From: Armatimonadia bacterium
GTDB lineage: Bacteria > Armatimonadota > Zipacnadia > Zipacnadales > JABUFB01
Reading direction: 5' to 3'
DNA length: 64,000 nt
Assembly (NCBI GenBank): GCA_039679385.1
Contig: JBDKVB010000017.1
Coordinates: forward strand, 5,399 to 69,398
How positions within the stretch are numbered: position 1 is the first letter of the stretch; the number at the start of each line of letters is the position of its first letter. A model generated the notes under the pieces. The model was not told the DNA's origin, did not search any database, and saw nothing but the letters and a program-made list of their open reading frames with translations. The position numbers and the translations under genes are program-made. This document shows positions 8,059-46,563 of this stretch, piece after piece.

Positions 8059-8087
8059 TGGACAGTTGTGCCGAATACTGCTATTCT
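8059..8087 (+). promoter_or_regulatory. Candidate sigma70-type promoter (TGGACA-N17-TATTCT) for the low-complexity protein locus
   Basis: Hexamers and 17-nt spacing read from the sequence. The predicted TSS near 8094 leaves room for a GGGAGG RBS at 8133-8138. Confidence 0.35.
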
Positions 8088-8146
8088 AGCACATAGAACA
8101 AATGGCGGACGCATCGCTTGCGTACCCCACTTGGGAGGCGAGCCTC

Positions 8147-9223
8147 TTGCGGTGCCCACTTACCGGTACTGTGCTACTTCTGTGCGTAATTCTGAGCGTA
8201 GGTTACGCGCAGGAGGTCAAGGTCGAGTATTTCGCGGCGGACCCGGCAAAAGCGATTGACCTGAATGCTCCAGACCTCAAGAGCGAGATGCTCGATCTGG
8301 GCATTGTCATCGCGAATGTGTCGGACAATGCGGCGGTAATGGACCAGGTCCTGGCCCAGACCCGCGAGAAGCCGGTGAAAGCGGTCTGCTACGCGGTACG
8401 GATCACCAACCAGACCGGTAGCCCGATTCCGCTGAGCTACGACACCGTCAATCTTGCCTCGGGAACCTGGCAAGAGGTGGACGCTGACTTCACCAATCCC
8501 ACCTTCGACAAGGCGAGTCCGGTGACGGAGTGGGCCGGTGCGAAGTCTATCTTCGCCAAGGGCAAGACCCTTGCGGATGGCGCGACGGTGGACGGTGTGG
8601 TGTTCTACGAGCTGCCCAAGGAGACCGCGTCGACCGGCGGGATGCTGGGCGCTTCCATGGGCTCTGGGATGGACATGGGCGGCATGATGGCGGCAGCCCC
8701 GGCGCCGCAGGAGCCGCCACGCCGCATCCAGTACGTTGCGCCCGCGTCCCTGAAGGTCAAGGCTGCCGAGCCGCGTGAGGCACCGGATCTTCTGCAGGAC
8801 CTCGACCTGGAGTGGACGAGCGTTTCGTCGCTCAGCGCGCCTCCGGGTGGCAAGCCCCGGATCTTCCCGGGCATGGGCAATGTGGATGACAACACGCCCC
8901 TGCGCGTGGGGACGCCGGGTGCTCTGAAGGCCGCTCCGAAGAGCCCGGTTGAGGCCAGCGTGAACCTTGTGGGCGAGCAGCCGGCAGCCGGAATGGGTGG
9001 CATGCCTGGGATGTCGGGCATGGGCGGCAGCATGGACATGATGGGGATGCCCAGCGGAATGCCCGGGATGCCTGGAATGCCTGGTATGGGCGGCGGCATG
9101 CCGGGGATGCCCGGAGCGCCTGGTGGTCCGGAGATGGCGCCCGGTGCGCCGTCTATGCCTGGCGAGATCCCGGAAACAGGCGGAAAGCGTCCGCGTCGCC
9201 CAGGTGCGGGGCCGGAAGAATAG
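8147..9223 (+). CDS. Secreted hypothetical protein with a C-terminal Met/Gly/Pro-rich low-complexity tail (MPGMPGMPG, MGGM repeats)
   Basis: TTG start 8 nt after GGGAGG gives the signal peptide MRCPLTGTVLLLCVILSVGYA-QEV; the ATG at 8102 is the alternative. Last ~70 aa are almost only M, G, P, S, A. No recognisable domain. Confidence 0.6.
   Translation: MRCPLTGTVLLLCVILSVGYAQEVKVEYFAADPAKAIDLNAPDLKSEMLDLGIVIANVSDNAAVMDQVLAQTREKPVKAVCYAVRITNQTGSPIPLSYDTVNLASGTWQEVDADFTNPTFDKASPVTEWAGAKSIFAKGKTLADGATVDGVVFYELPKETASTGGMLGASMGSGMDMGGMMAAAPAPQEPPRRIQYVAPASLKVKAAEPREAPDLLQDLDLEWTSVSSLSAPPGGKPRIFPGMGNVDDNTPLRVGTPGALKAAPKSPVEASVNLVGEQPAAGMGGMPGMSGMGGSMDMMGMPSGMPGMPGMPGMGGGMPGMPGAPGGPEMAPGAPSMPGEIPETGGKRPRRPGAGPEE
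9049..9115 (+). repeat. 9-bp periodic tandem repeat (ATGCCnGGn) encoding MPG/MGG units
   Basis: Direct reading: agcggaatgcccgggatgcctggaatgcctggtatgggcggcggcatgccggggatgcccgga. A similar repeat (cccggaatg x2) occurs at 9541-9585 in the next gene. Confidence 0.7.
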
Positions 9224-9465
9224 CTAAAGGCGGGTCGCCGTTGAGGTGTGCCCACCGTGGGGCTCGAAGTAGCCCGCTGCCACAAGAAGAGTCGCAGGGA
9301 CCGCCAGCCTGGCAACGGGCTGGTGCCTGCGGTTGTAGCCTAGTGTGATGTTGCACGGACGGCACGAAGCTCCCGGTCGTGGCCGTCTGAAAGAGGTGTA
9401 CCGACGTTGCTCCCGCGGCCTCTGTCGCCGCGACCTCCGATGCAGAACGCAGGGAGAGCTGACCG

Positions 9466-12400
9466 ATGAGATCACGCATGCAGTGGACCGCCTGCCTGGC
9501 ACTCACCCTCCTGGTGACTAGCGGCGCCCTGGCACAATTCCCCGGAATGCCCGGAATGCCGGGCGGAGGCGCAATGCCCGGGGACCTGAGCCAGTTACTG
9601 GGGCAGTTGGGTGGCATGATGGGTGGCGGCATGGAAGGCGCAGGGATGGGCATGGCGGCGGCGCCCGCCCCCAGCAAGTACATCTCCCCGCTGGTTCCCC
9701 TGTGCTGGGCAGTGGGCCGGTCGCAATACCCCGGCATCGCCTGCCTGTACGCGACCAAGCAGCAGAAAGCCCAGCTTGAGGCCCTGATTCGTCAGGTCGC
9801 CCCGAGCATCGAAGGGCGCTACTGGGTCAAGTTCGCCGACGTCACCGTTGATACCGATCCCCCCAGCTTCATCCGTGAGGTGCTCGCCGCCAAGTACCGC
9901 CTCCCCAAGGGCGGCGGCGGTGCGGCTGGAGCGGCCGCCGGTATGGAAGGCGGCAGCGCCGAGGCCGGTGCAATGGGAATGGGCATGGGGATGGAGGGCT
10001 CCGGCATGGCTGGAGCGGCGGCTGCCGGCAGCGTCTCCGATAAGGAACTCAAGGTCGAGGCCCGGCGTGCGGCTCCCTGCATCGTCATCTTCGGCAAGGA
10101 CATGTTCAGCCAGGGCGCAGGCGCTGCGACACCCGCTGCAGCAGCAACCGCCGCGATGCCCATGGAAGGCGGCAGCATGGACGCCAGCGGGATGATGGGT
10201 GGCGCCATGGGCGGCACTGCAGCTCCGGCGGCCGGCGGCAGCAAGTGGTCCCTGATGGACCGCAGCTTCATGGTCTACTGGTCCTTCGTCGGCAACAAGG
10301 AAGTCCCGACCCCGGAAATCCTGCGCTTCGTCCTCGACGCCGTGGGCGACCGTCAGGCCGGCATCGACCGCTTCGCGCGGCAGCTCAAGCAGGACAACAA
10401 GAACGCGAGTGTGACGCTGGAACTGGCTCGCGCTTACGTCCGCGCTCTGGAGCGCGGCAAGTCCTTCCTGCCGGGGCTCGGACTTAGCGCCGACCCGGCT
10501 CGTGCCCGGGTCGTCCAGCAGAATCAGTACATGGCGGACTACCTCCTGGCCCGCGCGGAGACCCTTGGCGGCGGCCGAAGCCTCGTGCGTGATATCCGCG
10601 ACGAGCAGGCCAAGCTCGCGGGCTCCTTCCGCTACTGCCCGCCGACAAGCCTCACTCCTATGCTGAGCCAGTACTTCCCGGGCATCGTGGGCTACTACCA
10701 GAATCAGGGCCAGCGTCTGCAGCTAGAGGCCTTGCTCGACACGCCCGCCGTCCAGCAGCAGATGAACAACGGCCACTACTGGTGCAAGCTGGTTAACCTC
10801 GTCTCGAAGGACACCGCCAAGGACACCAGCGTCATCGGCATGGTTCAGGACGAGAAGCTGGACGCCGAGATTGAGAACTACCCGGCCCTGGTCCTTTGCG
10901 GCCAGGACATCTTCAAAGAGGGCGACCCGGTCACTCCTGCCCAGGCAGCAGCAGCCGGTGCAAGCGCCGGCGGAGCAGGGATGGGCATGGAGGGGATGGC
11001 GGGCGCGCCTTCCGGTTCCGGCATGGAGACCGGCGGAGCGGCCGCGACACCCCAGGGCTCGACCTCCACTGATGACGGCAAGCTGACCGGCTGGATCCTC
11101 GGTGGCGCCGGAGCCGCTGCAGCCGGCACGACCACGGCGGCCATGCCCGGTGGTGCCAGCGGCAGCGCACCGGAGGGCATGCCCTCTGGTGGCGAGGCGA
11201 TGGCTGAAGGCACGATGCAGACCGCTGCGTCGGCCGTCGGCGAGATGACCTGGAGCGACTGGGACTATCGCCAGCCCAACCGCATGGCGTACCTGATGCA
11301 GTACGTCCTGTTCCAGGGCGCTCGAAGCGCCAAGGCCATTCCGAGCAGCGCAGACCTGGCCGCCAAGATGCAGACGGCCGTCACCATCGACAACGCCGCT
11401 CGTGCACTCAAGAACGACAAAGAGCATGACGACATCGATCTTCTCCTGACCGTCGGTCAGGGCTTCGTCGACCTCAAGCAGCACTACATGGCGGACTACT
11501 TCCTGGCTCGCGCAGAGAAGTGCGCCAAGGATCTGGACAAGAAGATCGCCGAGACCGAGAAGCGCCTCGCCGACGACGAGTTCGTCTCGGACTCCGAGCG
11601 CAACACCTGGAAGGACCGCTACGCCCGGCAGCGCGATGAGTTCGTCGTCTACCGCGATCGCATTCGCCAGCTCCGCATCGCCCTGCTCACGAGCTTCGGC
11701 AACGAGCAGCCGACGAACCAGATACCGGTTCTCCTCACCGACTTCCCCGGCATCATCGTCTTCTACGAGGGCGACTCCAGCTATGACCCGTCAGCAGCGG
11801 CCGAAGAACCGGATGCCAAGACGCCGGTCGTCAGCCGCCAGTCGGGCGCGGTTCGCTCCCTGCTGAGCCAGCCGCACATCGCCAAGTACATCGAAGACAA
11901 GTACTGGGTGAAGTACATCCGGGTCAAGTCCAGTGACAAGGATCCGCGGCCCGGTATCACGCCCAAGCCAGACTGGATGACCCGGCTCCCGGCAGTGCTC
12001 ATCATGGGCGCCGACCTCTTCCATACTGTCGGCCCGCGGGTAGCCGGTGGTAAGACGGCTGCCGGAGCGGCCGCAGCAGGAAGCGCTGAGACAGGCGCGA
12101 TGGCCGGCGGCGTGGCACCCGGCATGGAGATGGGCGCCGGCTCGATGGGCCCCGGTATGGAGGGTGCCGCAGGTGGCGCCGCTGCCGGTGTGTCCTCAAC
12201 AGGCGACCCGGCTGAGTGGCTCCCGCCTGCAGGTGGTGGAGCAGCAACCACCGCTCAGGCTGGCGCTGAGGGCTCGATGAGTGCTGAGGCCGGGGGCGCC
12301 ATGCCCATGGCAACCGCGGCAGCTCCTGCCGCCGGTGGGCCTCCGCAGCCGATCGGCATCCTCACCGGCACCTCGCCGATGGACGGCATGTTCGCCCAGT

Positions 12401-13713
12401 GGGCAGACTATGGTCACGAGAACCAACTGGGTCTGCGCCAGGGCTATGTGATGGTGCACTGGTCCTACATGGGCCGCAGCCAGCTCCCGCGGGAGTGGAA
12501 CCAGCAGGCGCACAGCGCCAGCCAGAAGCCGGAAGACTTCGACTACTTCCGCCGGCTCCTGGAGCGCACCTACGAGGTCGATCGCCTTGCGCACCAGGCC
12601 TACGAGGAGGAGCGACTGGCCTCGGGGATGACGCCCGCAGCCACTCCTGCCGCCACGACGGTGCTTGACCTGGCCTCCGAGTACGTTGGCCTCCCCGGAG
12701 CCTACATGGCTGAGTACATGCTGTCGCGCGCCGAGTACCTGGTGCAGCAGAAGTGGGAACCGGTGACCTCTCGCGTCACGAAGGCTGCAGACGCGGCCCT
12801 CGCCGAGCAGGCCAAGGGACGAGACTTCACCGGCGGCGACTACCTGGTAGAGATCCGCAACTTCCTGCAGCAGACACCCGAGGACCGGTCGGCCTGGATG
12901 GCCTCTCCGGCCCCGAAGGCATGGTTGGCGGCAACCGTCGCGCTCCGCCGCATGGGGATGCTTCCGACCGTCTACCTGCCGCAGTATGTGTCCCTGCAGT
13001 ACGCTTCAGCCGCCGGTGACGGGCAGGGCGCCATCGCCTCCTCCTCGCTGATGGGCCGCCCGATCCCGGCGTACTTCCAGCTCCCGCCGGAGAAGCTGAC
13101 CGACACCCAACTCAGGGAGGTTCGCACCTCTGCGATGAACGCGCTGTCGGCCGGCGCGATCGGCGTGGACCCGAAGGCGCTGTGGTCGCGGCTCCTGCTG
13201 GTTGAGACCGAACTGCGCGCTCGCCGCGGTGCCACCGACATCGATAGCTCCTGGCGCGAGATCATGTCCCTGTGGACGAGCCGCCAGCAGACCAGCACCG
13301 GCTACTCCGACAAGATACTCGAGGCGCTGGACAGGGCAGTCGACGGCGAGATCAACGTCCTCCGGGCCCTCAACGATGCGGGCATGCGCATGCAGGCAGC
13401 GCCGGGCTCCGGTGCGGACATGGCGAACCGGACGATGAGCGCCGCCACGGAGGAGAACCCGGACTGGGCGGGCAGCCCGCTGAGCGAAGTCGCCAGTCTG
13501 CGCGACTACCTCAAGGCCCGGCCGCACGATCGCGCTGCGGACCAGGCCCGTTACCTGATGGGCGTCATGCTCGAGACCGGGCCGACGGCAAACGACATGC
13601 GGCCGCTCACCAACGCAGCCTCTGAGCAGTACGGCAAGCTCAAGCCGATGGACACTCCGCCGCACTGGTGGCGTTTCGGCTATGGCCGCTGGGACCGCTT
13701 CCAGGCCAACTAA
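9466..13713 (+). CDS. Giant secreted hypothetical protein (1415 aa) with three tandem ~360-aa modules separated by Gly/Ala/Met-rich low-complexity linkers, plus a unique ~265-aa C-terminal region
   Basis: RBS AGGGAGAG 7 nt upstream. Signal peptide MRSRMQWTACLALTLLVTSGALA-QF. Motifs recur three times: YWVKFADV / YWCKLVNL / YWVKYIRV; MVYWSF / YLMQYV / VMVHWSY; YMADYLLARAE / YMADYFLARAE / YMAEYMLSRAE. No known family recognised. Confidence 0.8.
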   Translation: MRSRMQWTACLALTLLVTSGALAQFPGMPGMPGGGAMPGDLSQLLGQLGGMMGGGMEGAGMGMAAAPAPSKYISPLVPLCWAVGRSQYPGIACLYATKQQKAQLEALIRQVAPSIEGRYWVKFADVTVDTDPPSFIREVLAAKYRLPKGGGGAAGAAAGMEGGSAEAGAMGMGMGMEGSGMAGAAAAGSVSDKELKVEARRAAPCIVIFGKDMFSQGAGAATPAAAATAAMPMEGGSMDASGMMGGAMGGTAAPAAGGSKWSLMDRSFMVYWSFVGNKEVPTPEILRFVLDAVGDRQAGIDRFARQLKQDNKNASVTLELARAYVRALERGKSFLPGLGLSADPARARVVQQNQYMADYLLARAETLGGGRSLVRDIRDEQAKLAGSFRYCPPTSLTPMLSQYFPGIVGYYQNQGQRLQLEALLDTPAVQQQMNNGHYWCKLVNLVSKDTAKDTSVIGMVQDEKLDAEIENYPALVLCGQDIFKEGDPVTPAQAAAAGASAGGAGMGMEGMAGAPSGSGMETGGAAATPQGSTSTDDGKLTGWILGGAGAAAAGTTTAAMPGGASGSAPEGMPSGGEAMAEGTMQTAASAVGEMTWSDWDYRQPNRMAYLMQYVLFQGARSAKAIPSSADLAAKMQTAVTIDNAARALKNDKEHDDIDLLLTVGQGFVDLKQHYMADYFLARAEKCAKDLDKKIAETEKRLADDEFVSDSERNTWKDRYARQRDEFVVYRDRIRQLRIALLTSFGNEQPTNQIPVLLTDFPGIIVFYEGDSSYDPSAAAEEPDAKTPVVSRQSGAVRSLLSQPHIAKYIEDKYWVKYIRVKSSDKDPRPGITPKPDWMTRLPAVLIMGADLFHTVGPRVAGGKTAAGAAAAGSAETGAMAGGVAPGMEMGAGSMGPGMEGAAGGAAAGVSSTGDPAEWLPPAGGGAATTAQAGAEGSMSAEAGGAMPMATAAAPAAGGPPQPIGILTGTSPMDGMFAQWADYGHENQLGLRQGYVMVHWSYMGRSQLPREWNQQAHSASQKPEDFDYFRRLLERTYEVDRLAHQAYEEERLASGMTPAATPAATTVLDLASEYVGLPGAYMAEYMLSRAEYLVQQKWEPVTSRVTKAADAALAEQAKGRDFTGGDYLVEIRNFLQQTPEDRSAWMASPAPKAWLAATVALRRMGMLPTVYLPQYVSLQYASAAGDGQGAIASSSLMGRPIPAYFQLPPEKLTDTQLREVRTSAMNALSAGAIGVDPKALWSRLLLVETELRARRGATDIDSSWREIMSLWTSRQQTSTGYSDKILEALDRAVDGEINVLRALNDAGMRMQAAPGSGADMANRTMSAATEENPDWAGSPLSEVASLRDYLKARPHDRAADQARYLMGVMLETGPTANDMRPLTNAASEQYGKLKPMDTPPHWWRFGYGRWDRFQAN

Positions 13714-13729
13714 GGTACTCACGACGAGG

Positions 13730-13758
13730 GACCTTCTTCTCTCAGAGTGAAGAAGGTC
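13730..13758 (+). terminator. Hairpin (10-bp stem gaccttcttc/gaagaaggtc) immediately after the giant gene
   Basis: Perfect inverted repeat 17 nt after the stop. No strong U-tract, so it may be a stabiliser rather than a terminator. Confidence 0.35.
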
Positions 13759-13782
13759 TCCTCTGTCTCCAGGACGAACTAG

Positions 13783-13818
13783 CAGGCCGCGGCTGATACA
13801 GTCGCGGCCTGTCCTTTT
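13783..13818 (+). terminator. Intrinsic terminator (9-bp stem caggccgcg/cgcggcctg, 11-nt loop, tail tcctttt)
   Basis: Inverted repeat plus T-tract read from the sequence. Confidence 0.55.
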
Positions 13819-13908
13819 GTAGCGCGCGCTGAGCAAGCGCGGGAGGCATGTGCACGCCCTGCGGGCCGATCTGTGCCGCAAGGCGACCATCCCTGGCCTT
13901 CGCGTTGC

Positions 13909-13938
13909 TTGACGGGTTGCGTGGAATGCGGCTATACT
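13909..13938 (+). promoter_or_regulatory. Near-consensus sigma70 promoter TTGACG-N18-TATACT driving the third low-complexity gene
   Basis: Hexamers read directly. Almost identical in architecture to the ilvD promoter at 40292. Confidence 0.5.
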
Positions 13939-14001
13939 CATTTGGCGAGCCACTTCCATATAGCCCTCGAGTCGCCGCAAGCCTTTCGAGGTGGTTTCTT
14001 C

Positions 14002-15363
14002 ATGCGCTTTAAACGGCTGCTGCCCTACGCAATCGCCATCGTCGTTGTGGGCTTTGCGTGCTCCGTCGTCACCGTGACCAAGCCCTTCGCCCAGGGAGAG
14101 CCCAGTGCCGCGCCTCCCACCGATGCCGCAAGCGGCGCGCCGCCTGAGGCAGCCAGCGGCTCGCCCTCCGGCGAACCCGGCGCAGGGCCCGCTCAGGGCG
14201 CTGCCGGTGGTGGCGGTGCAGGTTATTCCTGGAGCGAGGCGACCATGCCGGAAGAGCTCCTCATGACCTATGGGGAGTTCCTGACCCAGGAGGCCCAGGC
14301 TCCGGTGCCGCTTCCGGAGTTCTACCTGCTAGAGGACAACGGGACGCCCAAGAAGTACACGCGCAACCAGTGGTACGGCCTCAGCCGGATCTATGCCGAC
14401 CAGCCGGTCAAGCCCGACGTGAAGCTCGTCGGCACCCCCGGCAACAGCCTGTGGAACCAGGTCTACCTGGAGGCTGCGGTCAAGCACAATGAGGTCAATG
14501 CCATGTGGTCGTGCTGGCAGGATGCGACCACCAACTTCTGGTTCGAGGTTGGGTACCCGCGCATCGGCCCGCAACTGCTGCAGTATGACTGGACGCGCAA
14601 GGCCATCCGCAACCCGGACGGGACCATCCGCTGGGGACGCTGGGAGGCCACGCTGCCCGACCGCTTCACCATCGTGGTGCCGGTGGTCATGCATGTGAAG
14701 GACCGCTGCCAGCAGACCTTCGGTACGCGGTTCTACAACCGCATGAAGCCCTTCGATAACATGGGCGATGGCCGCTCGCCCTTCAAGTTCATGACCTACT
14801 CCGGCGGCTACTACCGCCCCAACACCTTCTACCTGGCCGATGAGGCCATCCAGGTGTGGGCGGGTCTCTGGAGTGACCTGCGGGTCCAGCTCCGTCTGTT
14901 CGATCCGACGAACACTGAGGTTGTCAGGGCAGCCCAAGGCTCGGGCCTCAGCCCGGCGATCTTCACTCAGATGGTGCATCCGCCAGTCATCAACTACCAG
15001 CCCCGCTACCGGCTCCTCCTGCCTCATGAGGACGACCGGTTCAAGGGTGGCCGTTTGGCGCTCGAGGGTCAGGAAGGCTGGTACTTTGAGTTCTCCTTCA
15101 CCCTCACCCGCGACCAGTTGCGCTCCGTCACCAACGCGGAGGCTCGCCTCGTGTGCATGGTGAACGGCGCTCCGACACCGCCGCAGCGCATGAAGTTCCT
15201 GGCCGGTGCAGCAGGCGCAGCCGGTGGCGCTGCGGGTGCTGCCGGCGCCCCTGGTGCCCCTGGCGCCCCGTCCGGTATGCCGGGAGAGCCGGGCGCACCC
15301 GGCGGCAGTGCCGAAGCACCCAGTGGTTCGCCTTCCGAACCGGCGCCCGCTGTGGCTCCCTAA
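14002..15363 (+). CDS. Hypothetical protein with an N-terminal signal-anchor, Ala/Pro/Gly/Ser-rich tracts at both ends and a central ~330-aa Trp/Tyr-rich domain of unknown function
   Basis: ATG at 14002 (MRFKRLLPYAIAIVVVGFACSVV TM helix) preferred over the in-frame GTG at 13873. C-terminus is GAAGAAGGAAGAAGAPGAPGAPSGMPGEPGAPGG. No recognised family. Confidence 0.7.
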   Translation: MRFKRLLPYAIAIVVVGFACSVVTVTKPFAQGEPSAAPPTDAASGAPPEAASGSPSGEPGAGPAQGAAGGGGAGYSWSEATMPEELLMTYGEFLTQEAQAPVPLPEFYLLEDNGTPKKYTRNQWYGLSRIYADQPVKPDVKLVGTPGNSLWNQVYLEAAVKHNEVNAMWSCWQDATTNFWFEVGYPRIGPQLLQYDWTRKAIRNPDGTIRWGRWEATLPDRFTIVVPVVMHVKDRCQQTFGTRFYNRMKPFDNMGDGRSPFKFMTYSGGYYRPNTFYLADEAIQVWAGLWSDLRVQLRLFDPTNTEVVRAAQGSGLSPAIFTQMVHPPVINYQPRYRLLLPHEDDRFKGGRLALEGQEGWYFEFSFTLTRDQLRSVTNAEARLVCMVNGAPTPPQRMKFLAGAAGAAGGAAGAAGAPGAPGAPSGMPGEPGAPGGSAEAPSGSPSEPAPAVAP

Positions 15364-15404
15364 GGCCGGACAACAACTCGCTGCACATCCATAGGCAGAA
15401 CAAA

Positions 15405-15429
15405 GGGCTCGCCGCGTGCGAGCCCTTTT
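15405..15429 (+). terminator. Intrinsic terminator (stem gggctcgc/gcgagccc, loop cgcgt, tttt)
   Basis: Perfect 8-bp hairpin plus U-tract 42 nt after the stop at 15363. Confidence 0.6.
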
Positions 15430-15461
15430 CGTACCCATCGACCTGTCGGCAGGTGAGACCC

Positions 15462-16610
15462 ATGAAGGACTTCGCGATCCGCAGTCCACAGGAAGTGCGT
15501 TTCGGTTGGGGGGCGATTGGTGGCCTCCCGCAGGCTGTGGCCCGTTTGGGTGCGCGTCCGCTGGTGGTGACCGGCGGGGCCTCGATCGAGGCTGGTGGCC
15601 GGCTGGCAACCATCCTCACCTCGCTGACCGACGCCGGTCTCACACCCGTCCGTTTCCGGGGCGTTGAGCACGACCCCTCAGTGGAAACAATCGACCGTGG
15701 GCGCGGTGTGCTGGCTGCAGAGGGATGCGACTGCGTGGTCGCGATCGGTGGCGGAAGCGTGATGGATGCTGGGAAGGCTATCGCGGGGCTTGCCGGGGAG
15801 TCTGCGCCCACGGCCGACTTCGTCGCGGGCAGGGCCATCACCGGTCGCTGCCTGCCGATGGTGGCCTGCACCACGACCTCGGGCACCGGCTCCGAGGTGA
15901 CCCATGTGGCGGTGCTGACGGACTCTTCGCGTCAGGTCAAGGCCAGCATCCGCACCGAGGGGATGATGCCTGCGGTCGCGATCGTGGACCCGGAGCTAAC
16001 GGTGTCGATGTCTCCGGAGACGACTGCCTTCACCGGGCTTGATGCCCTCACGCAGGCCCTTGAGTCCTATATCTCCGTCGGCGCGAATCCCTTCAGTGAC
16101 CCGCTTGCCCTGCAGGCTGCGACCCTTCTCACGGGGTCGGTACGGAAGGCTGTGCGAGAGGGCAGCGACCGTGCCGTCCGCGAGAACATGGCTGCCGGGA
16201 GCATGCTTGCGGGTCTGGCCCTGGCGAGTGCCAGACTGGGCCTGGTGCACGGCCTGGCTCATCCCCTGGGGGTGCTGTACCACCTCGCCCACGGGCAGGC
16301 CTGTGCGCTGCTGCTTCCGCACGTGCTGGAGTTCAACGCCCCGGTGGCCGAGGCCAAGCTCGCGTGTCTTGCCCGTGCCTGCGGCATCTCCTCCAACCCG
16401 GTCGACACTGCAGCCGCCTACATGCTGGTTGTATGGGTGCGCGAGTTGTGCGCCGAACTGGGCTGCCTGCAGCCACTGGCGGACCTGGGTCTTCGGCGAG
16501 AGGACTTCGGCGCCATCACGGCGGCCACAATGGCCTCGGGTTCCACCAAGGCCAATCCCCGCCCCGTCACCGAGGCCGATGTGACCCGTATCCTCAATCG
16601 TGCCGCCTAA
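15462..16610 (+). CDS. Iron-containing (group III) alcohol dehydrogenase
   Basis: GGGSVMDAGKAIA glycine motif and two conserved His-rich regions (HGLAHPLG...H). Start trimmed to the ATG at 15462; the listed ORF runs further upstream. Confidence 0.8.
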   Translation: MKDFAIRSPQEVRFGWGAIGGLPQAVARLGARPLVVTGGASIEAGGRLATILTSLTDAGLTPVRFRGVEHDPSVETIDRGRGVLAAEGCDCVVAIGGGSVMDAGKAIAGLAGESAPTADFVAGRAITGRCLPMVACTTTSGTGSEVTHVAVLTDSSRQVKASIRTEGMMPAVAIVDPELTVSMSPETTAFTGLDALTQALESYISVGANPFSDPLALQAATLLTGSVRKAVREGSDRAVRENMAAGSMLAGLALASARLGLVHGLAHPLGVLYHLAHGQACALLLPHVLEFNAPVAEAKLACLARACGISSNPVDTAAAYMLVVWVRELCAELGCLQPLADLGLRREDFGAITAATMASGSTKANPRPVTEADVTRILNRAA

Positions 16611-29828: not shown

Positions 29829-30320
29829 ATGTCTCGTCTGCCAAGCCTTCCGGAATCCGCCGACTGGGTCCTTGACGGGCAACTGGCCGCCATGCCCCTG
29901 CCCTCCCGGGAGGAGCTGCAGGAGCTTCAGCGAGCGGGCTTCGGCCTGGTGGTGAACCTGACGGAGAAGCCCGGGCCGACCGCGATGGCCGCCGCTGCGG
30001 GCCTCAAGGGCGCTCACATCCCCTTCGAGGACCTCTCCGCACCGACCCTGGAGCAGATGCAGGACTTCGTGGCTACGGTGACGCGCTACCTGGACCTGGG
30101 TCGGCCGGTGATGGTTCACTGCATGGGCGGTCGTGGGCGAACGGGGACGATGATCGCCGCCTACTTGGTCCACCGGGGCATGAAGCCCTGGGCCGCCATT
30201 GACGAGGTGCGGCGGCGACGCCGAGGCGCCATCGAGACCCAGGAGCAAGAGTCTGCGGTGGTCGCCTACGCCCGGCATCTGCGGCGGGAGTCCGAGCGGA
30301 GCTGGCCGACGACCCCGTGA
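29829..30320 (+). CDS. Dual-specificity / Tyr protein phosphatase (CX5R P-loop)
   Basis: VHCMGGRGRTG matches the HCxxGxxRS/T active-site signature. Confidence 0.75.
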   Translation: MSRLPSLPESADWVLDGQLAAMPLPSREELQELQRAGFGLVVNLTEKPGPTAMAAAAGLKGAHIPFEDLSAPTLEQMQDFVATVTRYLDLGRPVMVHCMGGRGRTGTMIAAYLVHRGMKPWAAIDEVRRRRRGAIETQEQESAVVAYARHLRRESERSWPTTP

Positions 30321-30342
30321 GAAGCGCAAGCGGAGACAGCGC

Positions 30343-31263
30343 ATGACGCAAGTGACGCAGGCACTCACACCGGCGGCGGTGGCGAAGCTCACCACCATGC
30401 AACTGCGAGCCCGGGCGATCGTGGAAGGCCATTTCTCCGGCCAACATCGCAGCCCGTACCGTGGCGCCAGTGTGGAGTTTGCCGACCACCGCGAGTACAC
30501 CCCCGGCGACGAGACCCGGCACATCGACTGGAAGGTCTACGGTCGCCGCGACCGGTTCTTCGTGAAGGAGTACGACGCGGAGACCAACCTCAACGTGCAC
30601 CTGATGGTGGATGTCAGCGGCTCGATGAACTACGGTGCGCCGGTGCGCAAGCTGGAGTATGCCGCTTATCTGGCGGCCGGTCTGGCCTACCTCGCCACCC
30701 ATCAGCGCGATGCCACCGGGCTGCTGCTCTTCGACCACCGACTGCGACTGCAGCTACCTCCCCACACCAAGCCGGCCCACCTGCAGCGGATCTTCGACAC
30801 CCTCGATGCCGCCTGTCGAGGTGCGCTTCCACCCTCCGACGACGACCTCTCGCGCGAGACTGACCTGACGGCGGCGCTGGAGGCTGCGACGCCGACCATC
30901 ACCCGCCGCGGCCTGGTGGTGGTGATCTCCGATCTACTGGATGATCTCGACCGCGTACTGCGAGCCCTGGCCTATCTGCGACACCGCGGGCATGACGTGA
31001 TGGTGCTGCAGGTGATGGATGCCGAGGAGTTGGAGTTCCGCTTCCGTGGCCCGGCGCTGTTCGAGGATCTGGAGACCGGGCAACGTCTGGCGGCCCAGCC
31101 CGAGCAGCTTCGGCGCGACTATCTGAGGGCGCTGCACGAGTTCCTCGCCCAGGTTCGCGACGGCTGCCGCAAGCTCGCAATCGATCAGGAACTCCTCGAC
31201 ACGAGCCGCCCCTTCGACCAGGCGCTGACAGCGTACCTGGGGAGACGAAGCAGGGCCCGGTGA
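30343..31263 (+). CDS. DUF58 domain protein (vWA-like, normally a MoxR-ATPase partner)
   Basis: HRSPYRGASVEFADHREYTPGDETRHIDWKVYGRRDRFFVKEY...VDVSGSM signature of DUF58. Start trimmed to 30343. Confidence 0.8.
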   Translation: MTQVTQALTPAAVAKLTTMQLRARAIVEGHFSGQHRSPYRGASVEFADHREYTPGDETRHIDWKVYGRRDRFFVKEYDAETNLNVHLMVDVSGSMNYGAPVRKLEYAAYLAAGLAYLATHQRDATGLLLFDHRLRLQLPPHTKPAHLQRIFDTLDAACRGALPPSDDDLSRETDLTAALEAATPTITRRGLVVVISDLLDDLDRVLRALAYLRHRGHDVMVLQVMDAEELEFRFRGPALFEDLETGQRLAAQPEQLRRDYLRALHEFLAQVRDGCRKLAIDQELLDTSRPFDQALTAYLGRRSRAR

Positions 31264-40328: not shown

Positions 40329-40641
40329 TAGGACAATATCGTAGAAGGCTGTGACGGGGAAGAGTAGGCGTACAACGCGATCCACAGAGAGCCGGCGAGA
40401 AGGTGAGAGTGCCGGCGGTTGCGTCCGCTGAAAGTCACCCCTGAGCCACGTGGCTGAACGGTAATGCGATCGCATCCCGAGCTCAAACCGGGGTGTGGTT
40501 GGCCAGTAAGCCAGGTCGGGTACGCCCGTTATCGCGTGAGAGAGCCGTCCCGCATGGCGGGACGGAACTTGGGTGGTACCGCGGGAAGCACAACGCCTCT
40601 CGTCCCAAGCGCCTTGCTGCGCCTGGACGAGGGGCGTTTTT
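40329..40641 (+). ncRNA. T-box riboswitch leader (tRNA-sensing transcription attenuator) upstream of ilvD
   Basis: T-box consensus AACTTGGGTGGTACCGCGGGAAG at 40566-40590. Terminator hairpin acgcctctcgtcc/ggacgaggggcgt plus ttttt at 40593-40641. Stem I elements in the correct order: AG bulge AGAGAG (40386-40391), distal loop GGTGA (40402-40406), candidate specifier GAAA-GTC-A (40430-40437). Confidence 0.7.
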
Positions 40642-40761
40642 CGTATGTCCCCATTGACCGGCCTGCCACGCACGCGAGCCCCAGGGCAGAGCGTAGTGAG
40701 AACTGGCAGGCCATGCCCGGAGCGCCCATCCCGGGCCCAACAGAAGAGGAGCGACGGAATC

Positions 40762-42417
40762 ATGCGTAGCGACCAAGCCAAATCCGGTCTGACGCAGGCG
40801 CCGAGTAGGGCCTTGCTATACGCCTGCGGCTTCACGCCCGACCAGGTCAAGGGCCTCCACATCGGCATCGCCGACAGCTCGTCGGACATCGTCCCCGGGC
40901 ACGTGGGGATGCAGATGCTTGTCCAGCACGTCATGCTCGGGATCGCCGCCGGTGGTGGCGCCCCGATGCGCTTCGGCATCCCGGCAATCTGTGACGGCAT
41001 CGCCATGGGCCACAGGGGCATGTTCTACTCCCTGCCCTCCCGTGAGCTCATCGCCGACTCGGTGGAGAGCATGGCCGAGGCCCACGCCCTCGACGGTCTG
41101 GTTCTCGTCAGCAACTGCGACAAGATCACCCCGGGCATGCTGATGGCTGCGGGACGCCTCGACATCCCCTGCATCGTCGTCACCGCCGGTCCGATGTACT
41201 CCGGTCGGCTCGAAGGCCGCCGTCTGGACCTCGTCAAGGACACCTTTGAGGCTGTCGGACGGGCGCAGGCCGGCGTCATCAGCGAGGAGGACGTCGAGCG
41301 TCTTGCCATGGAAGCGTGCCCCGGCTGCGGATCGTGCCAGGGCCTTTACACCGCCAACACCATGGCCTGCGTCACCGAGGCCCTGGGTATGAGCCTGCCG
41401 GGTTGCGGTACTGCTCTCGCCGGTCAGGCCCAGAAGATGCGGATCGGCTACGACAGCGGCGTGCGCATCTGCGAGCTCGTCCGCCAGGGCATCACGACCC
41501 GCCAGATCATCACTGAGCCCGCCATCCGCAACGCCATCCGCATTGATATGGCCCTGGGCGGCTCGACGAACACCTGCCTGCACATCCCGGCCGTCGCTCA
41601 CGAGGCCGGCGTGGATATCCCGCTGGAAGTCTTCGACGAGATCAGCAAGGCTACGCCGCAGATCGCCTACCTGCGCCCCGCCGGGGAGCACATGATGGAG
41701 GACTTCCACTGGGCCGGTGGCGTTCAGGGTGCCCTGAGCGTGCTCAAGGACTCGCTGGACGATGCCCCGACCGTTAGTGGCAAGACCGTCAGGCAGCTCG
41801 TCGCCGAGGCCAGGGTCATCAACTCCGACGTTATCCGCTCGCTGGACAACGTCTACCGCCCGGAAGGCGGGATTGCCGTCCTGCGTGGCAACGTCTGCCC
41901 CGACGGCGCCGTGGTGAAGCAGTCGGCGGTAAGCCCGGATATGCGCAAGTTCCACGGCAAGGCCCTCTGCTTTGACGGCGAGGAGCAGGCCATGGAGGCC
42001 ATCATGGCCGGGAAGATCACCGACGGCTCCTGGGTCATCGTTCGCTACGAAGGCCCGAAGGGTGGTCCCGGCATGCGCGAGATGCTCAACGCGACCGCGG
42101 CCCTGACCGGCATGGGCAAGGAAAGCTCGGTAGCCCTGCTCACCGACGGACGGTTCAGTGGCGGCACCCGTGGGCCCTGCATCGGCCACATCTCCCCGGA
42201 GGCCGCTGAGGGCGGTCCGCTGGCCCTGGTCCAGGATGGCGACGAGATCAGCCTCGACCTGGATGCCCGCAAGATCGAGCTGCACGTGGACGACGCCGAG
42301 CTGGCCCGCCGCAAGGCCAACTGGGTCGCCCCGGCCCCCAAGGTCACGAAGGGCTGGCTCGGACGCTACGCACGTCTGGTCAAGAGCGCTGCGACCGGCG
42401 GAGTCATGGAGTCCTAA
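40762..42417 (+). CDS. ilvD: Dihydroxy-acid dehydratase
   Basis: 552 aa. CDKITPGM cluster-ligand motif and SGGTRGP region typical of IlvD/Edd. ATG at 40762, 9 nt after AGAAGAGGAG. Confidence 0.9.
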
Positions 42418-42551: not shown

Positions 42552-44261
42552 ATGAGCAACCGCACCTTCACCGGCGCCGATGGGATGCTGAGGGTCTTCG
42601 AAGAGGAAGGCGTGGACGTGATCTTCGGCTTCCCCGGTGGGTCCGTCATTCCCATCTACGACAAGATCTATCACGCGGTGGCCGAGGGCCGAATCCGCCA
42701 CATCCTGCCGCGCCATGAGCAGGGCGGCATCCATGCTGCCGACGGCTATGCGCGCTCGACGGGCAAGGTCGGCGTAATGGTCGCCACCAGTGGCCCCGGC
42801 GCGATGAACCTGGTGACGGGCCTGGCAACCGCCTATATGGATTCGGTACCGATCGTCGCCGTCACCGGTCAGGTCAAGACCTCGGCCATCGGCAAGGACG
42901 CCTTCCAGGAGGCCGACACGATCGGCGTCACGATGCCGGTGACCAAGCACAACTACCTGGTCAAGAGCGTGGCCGACCTTCCGGAGATCACCCGAGAGGC
43001 CTTCTACATCGCCCGCACGGGGCGTCCCGGACCGGTGGTCATCGACGTGCCCTTCGATGTCAGCGCCGGTCCCTGCAACTGGGTTGATGCCCCGCGTAAG
43101 GAGATCCCCGGCTATGCACCGCCCGGCAAGGGTGACCCGGAGGCCATCCGCAAGGCCGCCGAGATGATCTCCAAGGCGGAGAGGCCGATCCTGTACGTGG
43201 GTGGCGGAATCATCGCTGCCGACGCCGCTCCCCTGCTGAAGGAACTCGCCGAGAAGGCCAACCTCTTCGTGGTTCACACCATGATGGGCAAAGGCGCCTT
43301 CCCCGAGACCCATGACCTGTCCATGGGGATGCCGGGCATGCACGGGATGGCCTACGGGAGCCATGCGCTCCAGCACGCGGGCCTGATCATCGCCATCGGC
43401 GCACGCTTCGATGACCGCGTTACCGGCGACCCGACCAAGTTTGCACCTGAGGCCGAGGTCATCCACATCGACATCGACCCCGCCGAGATCAACAAGGTCC
43501 GGCGGGCGCAGGTTGCGATCGTCGGCAATGCTCGCCTCGTGCTCGAGGAGCTCCTGCCGCAGATCCAGCCCCGTCAGCCGGGAGAGTGGGAAGCGCACCT
43601 GCGCGAGTGGCGTGCCGCCCATCAGCTCTCCTACAACGCAGACCCGGAGGACGGCGTCTCGCCGCAGTACGTCATCGAGCAACTCTGGGAAGCGACGAGG
43701 GGCGAAGCGATCGTCTGCACCGAAGTCGGTCAGCACCAGATGTGGGCCGCGCAGTACTACCGCTGCCAGTTCCCGCGCCAGTTCATCTCCAGCGGCGGCC
43801 TCGGCACGATGGGCTTCGGCTTCCCGGCGGCCATCGGTGCGCAGGTCGGCAACCCGGGCAAGGTCTGCGTGGACATTGCCGGCGACGGCTCCATTCAGAT
43901 GTGCATCCAGGAACTGGCAACCGCCGTCATCAACAAGCTGCCGGTCAAGGTGGTCATCCTCAACAACGGCTACCTGGGGATGGTGCGCCAGTGGCAGGAC
44001 CTCTTCTACGGCAAGCGCTACAGCGGCGTTGACCTGACCGGCAACCCGGACTTCGTCAAGCTCGCCGAGGCCTACGGCGCAACGGGATACCTGGTGACAG
44101 ACAAGTCGCAGGTGCGGCCGACGCTGGAGAAGTCCCTGGAGATCACCGACCGGCCGTGCGTCATCGACGTTCGCACGCCGCCGGAAGAGAACGTGTTCCC
44201 GATGATTCCGGCCGGCGCGACCTTCGCAGACATGATGGAAACCGCGCCCGTGGGCATCTAG
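42552..44261 (+). CDS. ilvB: Acetolactate synthase (AHAS) large catalytic subunit, copy 1
   Basis: ThDP-enzyme motifs GDG...NN; HEQGGIHAADGYAR; 569 aa. Confidence 0.9.
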   Translation: MSNRTFTGADGMLRVFEEEGVDVIFGFPGGSVIPIYDKIYHAVAEGRIRHILPRHEQGGIHAADGYARSTGKVGVMVATSGPGAMNLVTGLATAYMDSVPIVAVTGQVKTSAIGKDAFQEADTIGVTMPVTKHNYLVKSVADLPEITREAFYIARTGRPGPVVIDVPFDVSAGPCNWVDAPRKEIPGYAPPGKGDPEAIRKAAEMISKAERPILYVGGGIIAADAAPLLKELAEKANLFVVHTMMGKGAFPETHDLSMGMPGMHGMAYGSHALQHAGLIIAIGARFDDRVTGDPTKFAPEAEVIHIDIDPAEINKVRRAQVAIVGNARLVLEELLPQIQPRQPGEWEAHLREWRAAHQLSYNADPEDGVSPQYVIEQLWEATRGEAIVCTEVGQHQMWAAQYYRCQFPRQFISSGGLGTMGFGFPAAIGAQVGNPGKVCVDIAGDGSIQMCIQELATAVINKLPVKVVILNNGYLGMVRQWQDLFYGKRYSGVDLTGNPDFVKLAEAYGATGYLVTDKSQVRPTLEKSLEITDRPCVIDVRTPPEENVFPMIPAGATFADMMETAPVGI

Positions 44262-46077: not shown

Positions 46078-46563
46078 ATGAAACACACCATCTCAGCCAG
46101 GGTCGAGAACAAGCCGGGCGTGTTGGCGCGGATGTCCGGGCTGTTCGCTCGCCGTGGCTTCAACATCGACAGCCTGGCCGTCAGTACCACCGAGGACCCG
46201 GGCGTGTCTCGCATGACGATCACGGTCACCGGCGACGAGTTCACGCTGGAGCAGATCTGCAACCAACTGGTCAAGCTAGTGGACGTAATCGAGGTCGTTG
46301 ACCACACCAACGACGCCTACGTGGACCGCGAACTGTGCTTGTGCAAGGTCTGCTGCGACGCCCAGACTCGCCACGACATCATCGACCTGTGCAACATCTT
46401 CCGCGCGGACGTGGTCGATGTCGGCAACGAGACCCTGATCCTGCAGATCACCGGCGACGAGGACAAGATTGACGCCTTCGTTCGCACGATGGAGCAGTTC
46501 GGTGTCCGTGAGATGGTCCGCACGGGCAAGATTCTCCTGGTCCGAGGAGTGCAGCGAACCTAG
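46078..46563 (+). CDS. ilvN: Acetolactate synthase small regulatory subunit (ACT domain)
   Basis: MKHTISARVENKPGVLARMSGLFARRGFNIDSLAV motif. Confidence 0.85.
   Translation: MKHTISARVENKPGVLARMSGLFARRGFNIDSLAVSTTEDPGVSRMTITVTGDEFTLEQICNQLVKLVDVIEVVDHTNDAYVDRELCLCKVCCDAQTRHDIIDLCNIFRADVVDVGNETLILQITGDEDKIDAFVRTMEQFGVREMVRTGKILLVRGVQRT

Follow-up and report, generated by a model that had tools for sequence, protein, structure and literature searches.

Here, we describe a secreted, multi-module protein of 1415 residues from a small and so far undescribed family. It is encoded in a 64,000-nucleotide stretch of DNA from an Armatimonadia bacterium (the window), and its architecture is well supported: a Sec-secreted "beads-on-a-string" in which three paralogous modules and a C-terminal domain are carried on flexible spacers. 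Its function is proposed with low confidence; the best explanation that we can offer, tentatively and at somewhat less than an even chance, is a secreted multivalent scaffold whose methionine-rich spacers bind soft ligands.

Architecture of the giant protein

The open reading frame is present in the window at 9466-13713 on the forward strand, as a sequence-only reading had claimed, and has a GC3 of 0.83, as in real genes of this 65% GC window. Relative to its orthologues, the structured parts are ~60% identical and the linkers ~47%, with insertions and deletions falling mostly in the linkers. The signal peptide, which, as read from the sequence, resembles the Sec/signal peptidase I type and has an AxA cleavage site, is kept in orthologues. 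Based on this GC3, the orthologue-conserved signal peptide, and the conservation of the structured parts, we take the gene to be real and its product is predicted to be secreted. Its parts are as follows:

9466..9534, +, signal peptide, residues 1-23 (MRSRMQWTACLALTLLVTSGALA, followed by QF), read from sequence
9535..9672, +, N-terminal Met/Gly/Pro-rich low-complexity segment, residues 24-69, from composition analysis
9673..10113, +, alpha/beta part a1, residues 70-216, with a Gly/Ala/Met linker inserted at residues 150-190 (9913-10035), from alignments
10114..10239, +, Gly/Ala/Met linker, residues 217-258, from composition analysis
10240..10935, +, contiguous unit b1+a2, residues 259-490, from AlphaFold and multiplied in the relatives L011 and L012
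10936..11250, +, Gly/Ala/Met linker, residues 491-595, from a three-ortholog alignment
11056-11106, +, conserved linker island STSTDDGKLTGWILGG, residues 531-547, an invariant block of the three-ortholog alignment
11251..12045, +, contiguous unit b2+a3, residues 596-860, from alignments and ortholog comparison
12046..12345, +, Gly/Ala/Met linker, residues 861-960, from alignment and composition
12199-12234, +, conserved linker island TGDPAEWLPPAG, residues 912-923, from alignment
12346..12915, +, helical part b3, residues 961-1150, with VMVHWSY and YMAEYMLSRAE, from alignments and ortholog comparison
12916..13713, +, C-terminal domain, residues 1151-1415, and stop codon, conserved in six family members

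Each module consists of an alpha/beta part "a" (with FPG, YWxK, and PxxxxxGxDxF) and a helical part "b" (with YMA[DE]YxLxRAE). Every motif on which the threefold repeat had been proposed sits at its stated place in the translation: YWVKFADV, YWCKLVNL, and YWVKYIRV at residues 119, 438, and 813; MVYWSF, YLMQYV, and VMVHWSY at 269, 609, and 995; and YMADYLLARAE, YMADYFLARAE, and YMAEYMLSRAE at 355, 674, and 1080. These recurrences are embedded in collinear modules. When profiles built from three orthologs per module, with the Gly/Ala/Met linkers deleted, were aligned pairwise by hhalign, all three pairs were collinear (M1-M2, probability 97.8%, E 9.7e-13; M1-M3, 97.8%, E 1.3e-12; M2-M3, 96.3%, E 2e-9), and 16 columns are invariant across the nine module copies. 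The internal triplication thus stands. There is next to no chance that low-complexity sequence and short motifs recurring by chance only mimic repeats without true domain duplication: BLASTP of the raw modules gives E 1e-6 for M1-M2 and E 1e-4 for M1-M3 but an insignificant E 0.5-2 for M2-M3, and 21-25% of the protein is linker, yet this reading is refuted by the linker-free alignments, the invariant columns, and the orthologues that every module type has in distant relatives.

Several details of the earlier description need amending. Identity between modules, put at 30-40%, is 27-32% over aligned structured columns (21-26% by BLAST with linkers). "Cys/Tyr-Trp domain" is a misnomer, since no cysteine is conserved between modules. 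The count of three modules holds; their borders had been placed ~25-45 residues too far downstream, so that modules 2 and 3 lost their initial strand and helix (FPGIVGYY, FPGIIVFY), and are better set at residues 70-390, 391-745, and 746-1150 (9673-10635, 10636-11700, and 11701-12915), with module 1 having two linkers, one of them within its alpha/beta part. The view of the duplication as old and maintained is borne out: distant members of the family contain clear orthologues of each of a1/b1, a2/b2, and a3/b3 (33-76% identity; 69-76% for a1 in L010 and L011), whereas paralogous modules inside one protein share only ~20-40%, and the triplication is therefore older than the divergence of the family.

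The C-terminal domain was correctly singled out as a distinct domain of ~265 residues. It is helical, lies outside the repeat, is unrelated to the modules (hhalign probability ≤1.5% with each), and ends with PPHWWR[WF]GxGRW, a Trp-rich motif that is conserved. No match to it was found in Pfam or among PDB sequences.

The spacers total ~300 residues in the giant protein and 300-600 across the family. In every family member, the linkers contain 11-24% Met, as against 1.5-3% elsewhere, an enrichment that arises despite a 65% GC composition, which gives ATG codons no advantage. Compared with shuffled sequences, there is an excess of MxM and MxxxM spacings, and MM pairs are few. The spacers are acidic, without Lys, Arg, His, or aromatic residues and with few Asp, and they are likely disordered; they preserve composition but not sequence and often carry indels. 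The linkers of the window protein, at 12% Met, hold more Ala and Gly than Met, so that Met may matter less here than in relatives. Within them lie the conserved islands, and L010, L011, and L012 have "TDWLP" islands equivalent to STSTDDGKLTGWILGG in their own linkers. Met-rich segments within the window are confined to this gene and its upstream neighbour.

Folding unit and family

The unit of folding and duplication is probably one uninterrupted b(i)+a(i+1) stretch, bounded by linkers, rather than a+linker+b as originally framed. This is based on AlphaFold models and on the duplication of b+a segments in relatives. The model of residues 259-490 (b1+a2; m2e1a9352d9ff) has a pLDDT of 80.8 and a pTM of 0.79, whereas linker-deleted a1+b1 reaches a pLDDT of 59, with the post-linker strand below 50, a comparison that is confounded by alignment depth (21 vs 17 rows) and by the artificial linker deletions in one construct. 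The extra copies in 4- and 5-module relatives are whole b+a units of the b1+a2 type. Unit b1+a2 runs from the strand FMVYWSF through the helical part with YMADYLLARAE to the alpha/beta part with FPGIVGYY, YWCK, and YPALVLCGQDIF; b2+a3 comprises a helical part with YMADYFLARAE and a long charged helix, then an alpha/beta part with FPGIIVFY, YWVK, and LPAVLIMGADLF.

The helical part may be weakly TPR-like. Pfam TPR_19 aligns to it at E 0.052, and the best Foldseek matches of the confident model are MamA, consensus TPR proteins, SycD, and CHIP TPR domains (E 0.2-1.6), all below significance. Among 350,542 PDB chains, Foldseek found no fold match (best E 0.23); TM-scores stayed under 0.2 for most chains and never exceeded 0.34. 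Sequence searches gave no match in Pfam or NCBIfam and nothing at E up to 10 in a PDB sequence-profile search.

An exhaustive HMMER search of 1.84 billion representative proteins returned 8 true matches, all multi-module fragments, and genome and metagenome scans returned 7 loci, with all 4 named genome loci in Armatimonadota; the relatives' named source records are, all except one, Armatimonadota. Relatives carry 2 to 5 modules, and the single-module homologues that the sequence-only reading had suggested looking for were not present in the databases searched.

Gene neighbourhood and a conserved partner

Around the gene lie the following features:

8059..8087, +, promoter-like site TGGACA-17-TATTCT with TG, before the partner gene, by consensus pattern match
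8102..9223, +, partner gene, product of 373 residues, from translation
13782..13822, +, terminator-like hairpin whose 14-bp stem has 10 GC pairs, followed by CCTTTTGT, downstream of the giant gene, by pattern match
14002..15363, +, secreted 453-residue protein with Ala/Gly/Pro-rich tails, downstream, from synteny comparison

The partner is a small, presumably secreted protein. It begins with a hydrophobic signal or anchor, contains a beta-rich domain and an internal Met/Gly stretch, and ends in a Met/Gly/Pro tail of the (GMPGMPG) type. It has no Pfam or NCBIfam match at threshold; its N-terminal domain bears a faint likeness to the DUF4352 beta-sandwich of secreted bacterial proteins (PF11611; E 0.024, 15.4 bits against a Pfam gathering threshold of 25.9 bits), which lacks the partner's (MGMPG)n tail. 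Partner homologues lie directly upstream of the giant gene in L001, L003-L006, L011, and L013, representing four lineages, and the pair is kept wherever the upstream flank is visible.

It is possible that the promoter-like site starts a two-gene transcription unit. The consensus scan gave two sites in this region where 0.8 would be expected; a separate promoter could lie in the 242 bp that part the two genes. The gene for the 453-residue protein is preceded by a promoter-like site of its own (13909-13938). Its synteny is limited to close relatives, it is not downstream in L010 and L011, and for this reason it is probably outside the core pair. The Pfam annotation of the window, which covers most of its first 47 kb, is that of housekeeping metabolism.

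Possible roles in the cell envelope

In light of this architecture, what might the role of the protein be? A modular binding or scaffold role, as suggested from the sequence at the outset, is plausible, and the signal peptide, the beads-on-a-string build, the 2-5 modules, and the weakly TPR-like helical part would all fit it. For the spacers, parallels are offered by the Met-rich insert of CueO, CopA/PcoA-type multicopper oxidases, and the "Mets" motifs (MxM/MxxM) of Ctr1, which are likewise flexible, exposed, thioether-dense, extracytoplasmic segments. Dynamic Cu(I) binding by flexible Met-rich domains of periplasmic proteins has been described as a "Cu sponge" of low affinity and high capacity (PMC11840665). 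The copper-protein Met domains differ, however, in their usual His and Asp, and the spacers here are far longer, Gly/Ala-dominated, and placed between domains. The giant protein lacks cupredoxin and multicopper oxidase domains, and copA, cueO, cus, and csoR are absent near the gene in the Pfam annotation of the window and in the precomputed Pfam matches of L001-L006 and L011.

A second option, which we consider possible but unlikely, is a structural matrix or elastomer, in which the Gly/Ala/Met/Pro segments are entropic springs or self-associating "stickers" that form, with the partner tail, a gel, sheath, or condensate, either extracellularly or within the envelope, Met being a flexible hydrophobic residue that is possibly redox-tunable. 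Methionine-rich prion-like domains have been reviewed (PMC9312190). The conservation of linker composition without sequence, the frequent indels, and the similar low-complexity tail of the partner agree with this option, as does the (GX)n alternation strongly enriched in some relatives (174 residues in L012 vs 41 ± 15 in shuffles), but the window protein and P0002 show no such enrichment, and the window annotation has no sortase, S-layer, or secretion-system genes nearby. Scallop abductin is a Met/Gly-rich elastomer, the yeast ataxin-2 relative Pbp1 has a Met-rich phase-separating low-complexity domain, and these, with the G/M region of Sis1, resemble the spacers in composition and have been proposed to act in elasticity, self-association, and client binding; they belong to another kingdom and compartment, are not homologous, and are not spacers between repeated folded modules. 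The matrix option overlaps with the soft-ligand scaffold and does not exclude it.

It is improbable that the modules are tandem chaperones, each a thioredoxin-fold domain without CXXC joined to a TPR-like domain as in CnoX (YbbN), together forming an extracytoplasmic holdase whose Met-rich loops grip unfolded hydrophobic clients. Precedents are SRP54, where hydrophobic peptides bind to Met-rich surfaces, and the G/M-rich region of the Hsp40 Sis1. The two-part module is shared with CnoX and other thioredoxin-fold plus TPR/helical proteins, including GST-like layouts: a small alpha/beta domain (beta-alpha-beta-alpha-beta(-beta-alpha), with a linker before the last beta-alpha in the giant protein), an invariant Pro that immediately precedes strand 3, at the thioredoxin cis-Pro position, and paired helices of faint TPR character, the catalytic CXXC being absent from both. 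The one local match that hhalign made to thioredoxins keeps this register (YWVKFADV..D with KLTVAKLNID; APCIVIFG with IPTLLLF), but the module profile against an alignment of four thioredoxin sequences scored only 0.5% probability (E 0.12), Foldseek found no thioredoxin-fold or CnoX match among the PDB chains, and HMMER profiles against PDB and Pfam found no thioredoxin family up to E 10. The CnoX-like reading is not supported by these searches. Unlike CnoX-type proteins, which are cytoplasmic, the giant protein is predicted to be secreted, and it has modules repeated 2-5 times and long Met-rich low-complexity insertions between parts.

We see a slim chance that the spacers are a sacrificial oxidant sink of the envelope that scavenges hypochlorite or reactive oxygen species and is then re-reduced by a periplasmic methionine sulfoxide reductase. 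Family proteins expose dozens to >100 Met in flexible segments, and a precedent is MrpX of Azospira suillum, which is also secreted, Met-rich, and presumably unstructured, and is paired with YedY1, an MsrP-type methionine sulfoxide reductase (PMC4436054). MrpX is, however, a small peptide encoded beside that reductase and sigma/anti-sigma regulators, whereas the family consists of modular proteins of 1100-2200 residues with conserved folded domains, and a sink requires neither conserved globular modules, conserved linker islands, nor a C-terminal domain. In addition, no msrP, msrQ, msrA, or msrB family appears among the genes annotated in most of the first 47 kb of the window and in the precomputed gene tables of L001-L006 and L011.

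We return, then, to the multivalent scaffold with soft-ligand-binding spacers. The giant protein would act outside the cytoplasm, in the envelope or extracellularly, where its globular units and conserved "TDWLP" linker islands would supply specific docking. Being long, flexible, acidic, and rich in Met, the spacers may join the Met-rich tail of the partner in a dynamic network of thioether-rich chains. The most likely chemistry of such chains would be to bind soft ligands, chiefly Cu(I)/Ag(I), in a "statistical" manner, with low affinity and high capacity.

A secreted chain of three repeated modules

Window positions 9466-13713 (+) hold one open reading frame of 1415 codons, whose GC3 of 0.83 matches that of other real genes in this 65% GC window. 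An identical protein has been deposited as "hypothetical" from an Armatimonadia MAG (MEN6343958.1); lineage-specific hypothetical proteins are common in MAGs. The protein has no match in Pfam or NCBIfam. Its N-terminus (MRSRMQWTACLALTLLVTSGALA, followed by QF) reads by eye as a Sec-type signal peptide, kept in orthologues, and Gly/Ala/Met low complexity makes up about a quarter of the chain, which is laid out below (a1-a3 are the alpha/beta parts and b1-b3 the helical parts of modules M1-M3).

Parts of the 1415-aa protein, by residue
1-23: signal peptide
24-69: Met/Gly/Pro low-complexity segment
70-216: a1, interrupted by a linker at 150-190
217-258: linker
259-490: b1+a2, contiguous
491-595: linker with the conserved island STSTDDGKLTGWILGG
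596-860: b2+a3, contiguous
861-960: linker with the island TGDPAEWLPPAG
961-1150: b3
1151-1415: C-terminal domain, last residues PPHWWRFGYGRW

The sequence-only reading had seen here an old threefold duplication of a module made of an a-part, a linker and a b-part, and all of the motifs that it quoted are found in the protein. BLAST of the segments that it delimited gives collinear matches between M1 and M2 (E 1e-6) and between M1 and M3 (E 1e-4), with M2-M3 unconvincing, and self-BLAST of the whole protein returns the identity match alone. Since about a quarter of the chain is of low complexity, we deleted the linkers and compared module profiles built from three orthologues instead (hhalign), which aligned all three module pairs collinearly at probabilities of 96-98% and E values of 2e-9 to 1e-12. 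In the resulting alignment of nine sequences (three orthologues with three modules each), the paralogous modules are 27-32% identical and 16 columns are invariant: P9, the FPG pair, the Trp and Lys of YWxK, the Pro and the G-D-F of PxxxxxGxDxF, one Asp, and Y-A-Y-L-RA in the YMADYLLARAE helix. Given these collinear profiles and invariant columns, the triplication is real. The earlier observation is confirmed and refined: the module borders had been drawn 25-45 residues too far downstream, and the "Cys" label given to the N-terminal domain has to be dropped, as the modules share no conserved Cys. The interpretation that went with it is supported in part. No relation links the C-terminal domain to the modules (hhalign probability of at most 1.5%). 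A hint from MAFFT that it opens with a vestigial fourth alpha/beta part was rejected, at an hhalign probability of 3%.

The folding unit and its comparison with known folds

AlphaFold modelled the contiguous b1+a2 segment (aa 259-490) with a pLDDT of 80.8 and a pTM of 0.79, against a pLDDT of 59 and an unplaced post-linker strand for the linker-deleted a1+b1 of the earlier module frame; the two models derive from input alignments of unequal depth and are compared by their confidence values. The elements of the b1+a2 model run in the order strand, six helices, then beta-alpha-beta-alpha-beta. Because b1+a2 gives the better model and the same unit is duplicated in relatives, the prediction favours a globular bead composed of b(i)+a(i+1), in which case the low-complexity segments would be the true spacers between beads.

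Comparison of the b1+a2 model with 350,542 PDB chains (Foldseek) found nothing at E <=0.001 (best E 0.23). The top matches are mostly TPR proteins, cover the helical part only and have E values of 0.2-1.6, probabilities of at most 0.2 and TM-scores mostly below 0.2; matches obtained with the poor a1+b1 model were meaningless and were discarded. Searches of PDB sequences with the module profiles (E up to 10) were empty, and a Pfam hmmscan of nine linker-free modules, again at E up to 10, gave TPR_19 only, in one of the nine (E 0.052), at 14.3 bits where the cutoff is 25, which falls short of a TPR-repeat assignment.

We also considered a thioredoxin-fold module of the kind found, joined to TPRs, in the chaperedoxin CnoX (YbbN), an idea based on the beta-alpha-beta-alpha-beta-beta-alpha order, an invariant Pro preceding strand 3 and the lack of a CXXC. 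It gained no support from Pfam (the hmmscan described above gave no thioredoxin family), PDB HMM searches, Foldseek or hhalign, where a module profile matched a four-thioredoxin alignment at a probability of 0.5%, the local alignment nonetheless being in the expected register. Neither CXXC nor SXXC stands at the start of helix 1, where the three modules read ATKQQ, QNQGQ and EGDSS, and no Cys is common to the modules.

A small family with a varying number of modules

Word-indexed searches yielded three sequences with the full protein, and one fragment and then none with linker-free modules; between them they supplied two full-length orthologues of about 54-57% identity and a fragment. The word index was seemingly swamped by, or unsuited to, this protein. 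The exhaustive HMMER search with a linker-free module profile was the informative one and found eight true relatives among 1.84 billion cluster representatives, all of them fragments of multi-module proteins of the same type; none is a single-module homologue. A ninth match (P0011), an FN3-repeat protein, was spurious. Pattern scans covering GTDB species genomes and JGI metagenomes brought seven further loci. The loci in named genomes are all from Armatimonadota (4/4; Armatimonadia, 'Ca. Zipacnadia'), and the NCBI label of one cluster member (P0022), Acidobacteriota, possibly reflects mis-binning. As judged by sequence and profile comparison, this family is new in kind: neither Pfam, NCBIfam nor the PDB yields a detectable relative, and the 1.84 billion representatives yield only its own few members.

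We defined membership by a signal peptide, at least two a/b modules with FPG, YWxK, PxxxxxGxDxF and YxAxYxLxRA, Gly/Met-rich linkers with a 'TDWLP' island, and a C-terminal domain ending in PPxWWRxG. The full set occurs in the window protein, its relatives P0002/P0003, and the proteins of loci L010, L012 and L013. That of L011 has all but the signal peptide, since its first reading-frame piece starts within the N-terminal low-complexity segment.

Module number in the family
2 modules: L010, L013, L014; about 1130 aa, with a Zn-ribbon-like CPxC...CPxC insert
3 modules: window protein, P0002/P0003
4 modules: L012; intact 1897-aa ORF
5 modules: L011; about 2200 aa, in three frames broken in low-complexity DNA, on a contig of about 3x coverage

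An all-against-all comparison separates a1, a2, a3, b1, b2 and b3 into distinct types, each of which has orthologues throughout the family, and this upholds the description of the duplication as old. The additional copies of L011 and L012 are b1+a2 units, each contiguous; in two-module proteins, the final b-part resembles a b2/b3 hybrid. That the types are orthologous family-wide and that extra b1+a2 units occur together imply that the triplication is ancient and that copy number is still shifting by recombination.

The Zn-ribbon-like insert (CPECGKMLPADAVVGDRCPLC) follows the last helical part and precedes the C-terminal domain (L010, 97-3507; L013, 8042-11434; relative protein P0009) and does not occur in the proteins of three to five modules. 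The five-module homologue (L011, 8304-14907) is called as three overlapping ORFs, with the breaks inside Met/Gly low-complexity DNA; these are probably assembly frameshifts, and may instead be real pseudogenisation or programmed slippage.

Methionine-rich linkers, a partner gene and a possible role

The 303 linker residues of the window protein are 30% A, 28% G, 12% M, 7% P, 6% S, 5% E and 5% T, with one Lys and no Arg, aromatic residue, Cys or His. Every family member has 11-24% Met in its linkers and 1.5-3% in the rest of the chain, and the linkers of relatives approach pure (MG)n, (MGMPGG)n or (GMGA)n. GC-rich codons favour Gly, Ala and Pro and do not favour Met (ATG), so the Met enrichment points to selection. 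MxM and MxxxM spacings exceed those of shuffled linkers (spacing-2 pairs: 9 against 3.5 +/- 1.7 in the window protein, 32 against 11.6 +/- 3.0 in L010), and MM is rare. Between orthologues the linkers are 47% identical against 60% for the folded parts, keeping composition and not sequence; close strains differ by small linker indels, and the only tandem-repeat DNA in the linkers is short slippage-type arrays of 6-12 nt. A conserved Trp island (consensus 'TDWLP') lies in every linker between an a-part and the next b-part, from a2 on, and might serve for docking or add a strand. Silk-like (GX)n alternation was rejected as a family-wide feature, being enriched in L012 and L010 and not in the window protein.

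Across the 64-kb window, Met/Gly segments occur in this gene and the one just upstream, and nowhere else. A homologue of this upstream partner lies directly 5' of the large gene in every lineage with a visible flank, while the outer neighbours differ; a promoter-like site precedes the partner and a terminator-like hairpin follows the large gene. The secreted 453-aa protein downstream was excluded from the system: its synteny is limited to close relatives, and a separate promoter-like site serves it, with a terminator-like hairpin ahead of it. The remaining window genes serve housekeeping metabolism.

Neighbouring and other features of the window
8102-9223 (+): partner, secreted, 373 aa; signal or anchor sequence, beta-rich domain, (GMPGMPG) tail; below the gathering threshold of DUF4352 (PF11611; 15.4 bits, cutoff 25.9, E 0.024)
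9223-9465: non-coding gap, 242 bp
13714-14001: non-coding gap, 288 bp, with two GC-rich hairpins
14002-15363 (+): 453 aa, secreted or anchored; tails rich in Ala, Gly and Pro at both ends of a Trp-rich globular core; unmatched in Pfam and NCBIfam; identity about 65% in close relatives, not beside the large gene in distant ones
15153-16610 (+): Fe-ADH ORF; listed start about 110 codons before the Pfam domain, overlapping the preceding gene; true start probably near 15480, as homologues have 381 aa
29829-30320 (+): dual-specificity phosphatase-like protein (polymorphic-toxin-associated DSP-PTPase families)
30199-31263 (+): adjoining DUF58/VWA protein; this pair is unrelated to the present finding
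40342-40610 (+): T-box leader (RF00230; 116 bits, E 5e-25)
40573-42417: ilvD-like dehydratase, first gene after the leader
42552-44261 and 44324-46033: tandem acetolactate-synthase large-subunit paralogues
46078-46563: acetolactate-synthase small subunit

Both gaps are long for a bacterial genome; neither contains an Rfam family, and Rfam and tRNA scans gave nothing near the locus. The T-box leader stands directly upstream of the ilv operon, which suggests that an Armatimonadota genome controls its synthesis of branched-chain amino acids by tRNA sensing. S-layer and secretion-system genes are absent from the annotated window genes.

What might be the role of this secreted, modular, low-complexity-linked protein and its partner? 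We propose that it would be an extracytoplasmic multivalent scaffold, whose thioether-rich spacers would most plausibly bind soft ligands with low affinity and high capacity. We advance this general picture tentatively, and any specific ligand is more doubtful still. Its MxM/MxxM clusters, in an exposed extracytoplasmic segment of a protein with a signal peptide, are of the kind seen in Met-rich Cu(I)-binding domains (the 'Mets' of CueO, CopA and Ctr1). Met-rich periplasmic domains are described as a statistical 'Cu sponge' (PMC11840665), which matches the binding mode proposed for the spacers. Alternatively, the protein might form a self-associating matrix or elastomer, or act as a holdase. 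A further alternative is an oxidant sink like MrpX (PMC4436054). Copper-homeostasis families are absent from the Pfam annotation of the window genes and from the gene tables of L001-L006 and L011, as are Msr-type families (MsrP/YedY were sought) from the annotated window genes (about the first 47 kb) and the Pfam annotation of the same loci. This lack of cop and msr neighbours weighs against both the Cu(I) and the oxidant-sink chemistries.

A bolder version of the scaffold proposal, which we consider improbable, is that the two proteins are the first bacterial extracytoplasmic system built on methionine-rich disordered regions, the (MG/MGMPG)n chains of a string of folded modules and a small adaptor forming, in the Armatimonadota cell envelope, a gel or condensate that responds to redox conditions and/or Cu(I), with the a+b module as a fold absent from the PDB. 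Should the linkers be plain structural spacers, the family would be a tidy, minor lineage-specific curiosity. If the scaffold proposal is true, this would be an undescribed protein family, possibly with an undescribed fold, and would give a little-known phylum a definite candidate for buffering Cu(I)/Ag(I) or oxidants at high capacity. The protein would also be one of the rare secreted proteins of bacteria whose conserved functional hallmark lies in methionine-rich disordered segments and not in folded domains. The variants of two, three, four and five modules offer a natural series for the evolution of domain-repeat number through recombination in low-complexity DNA.
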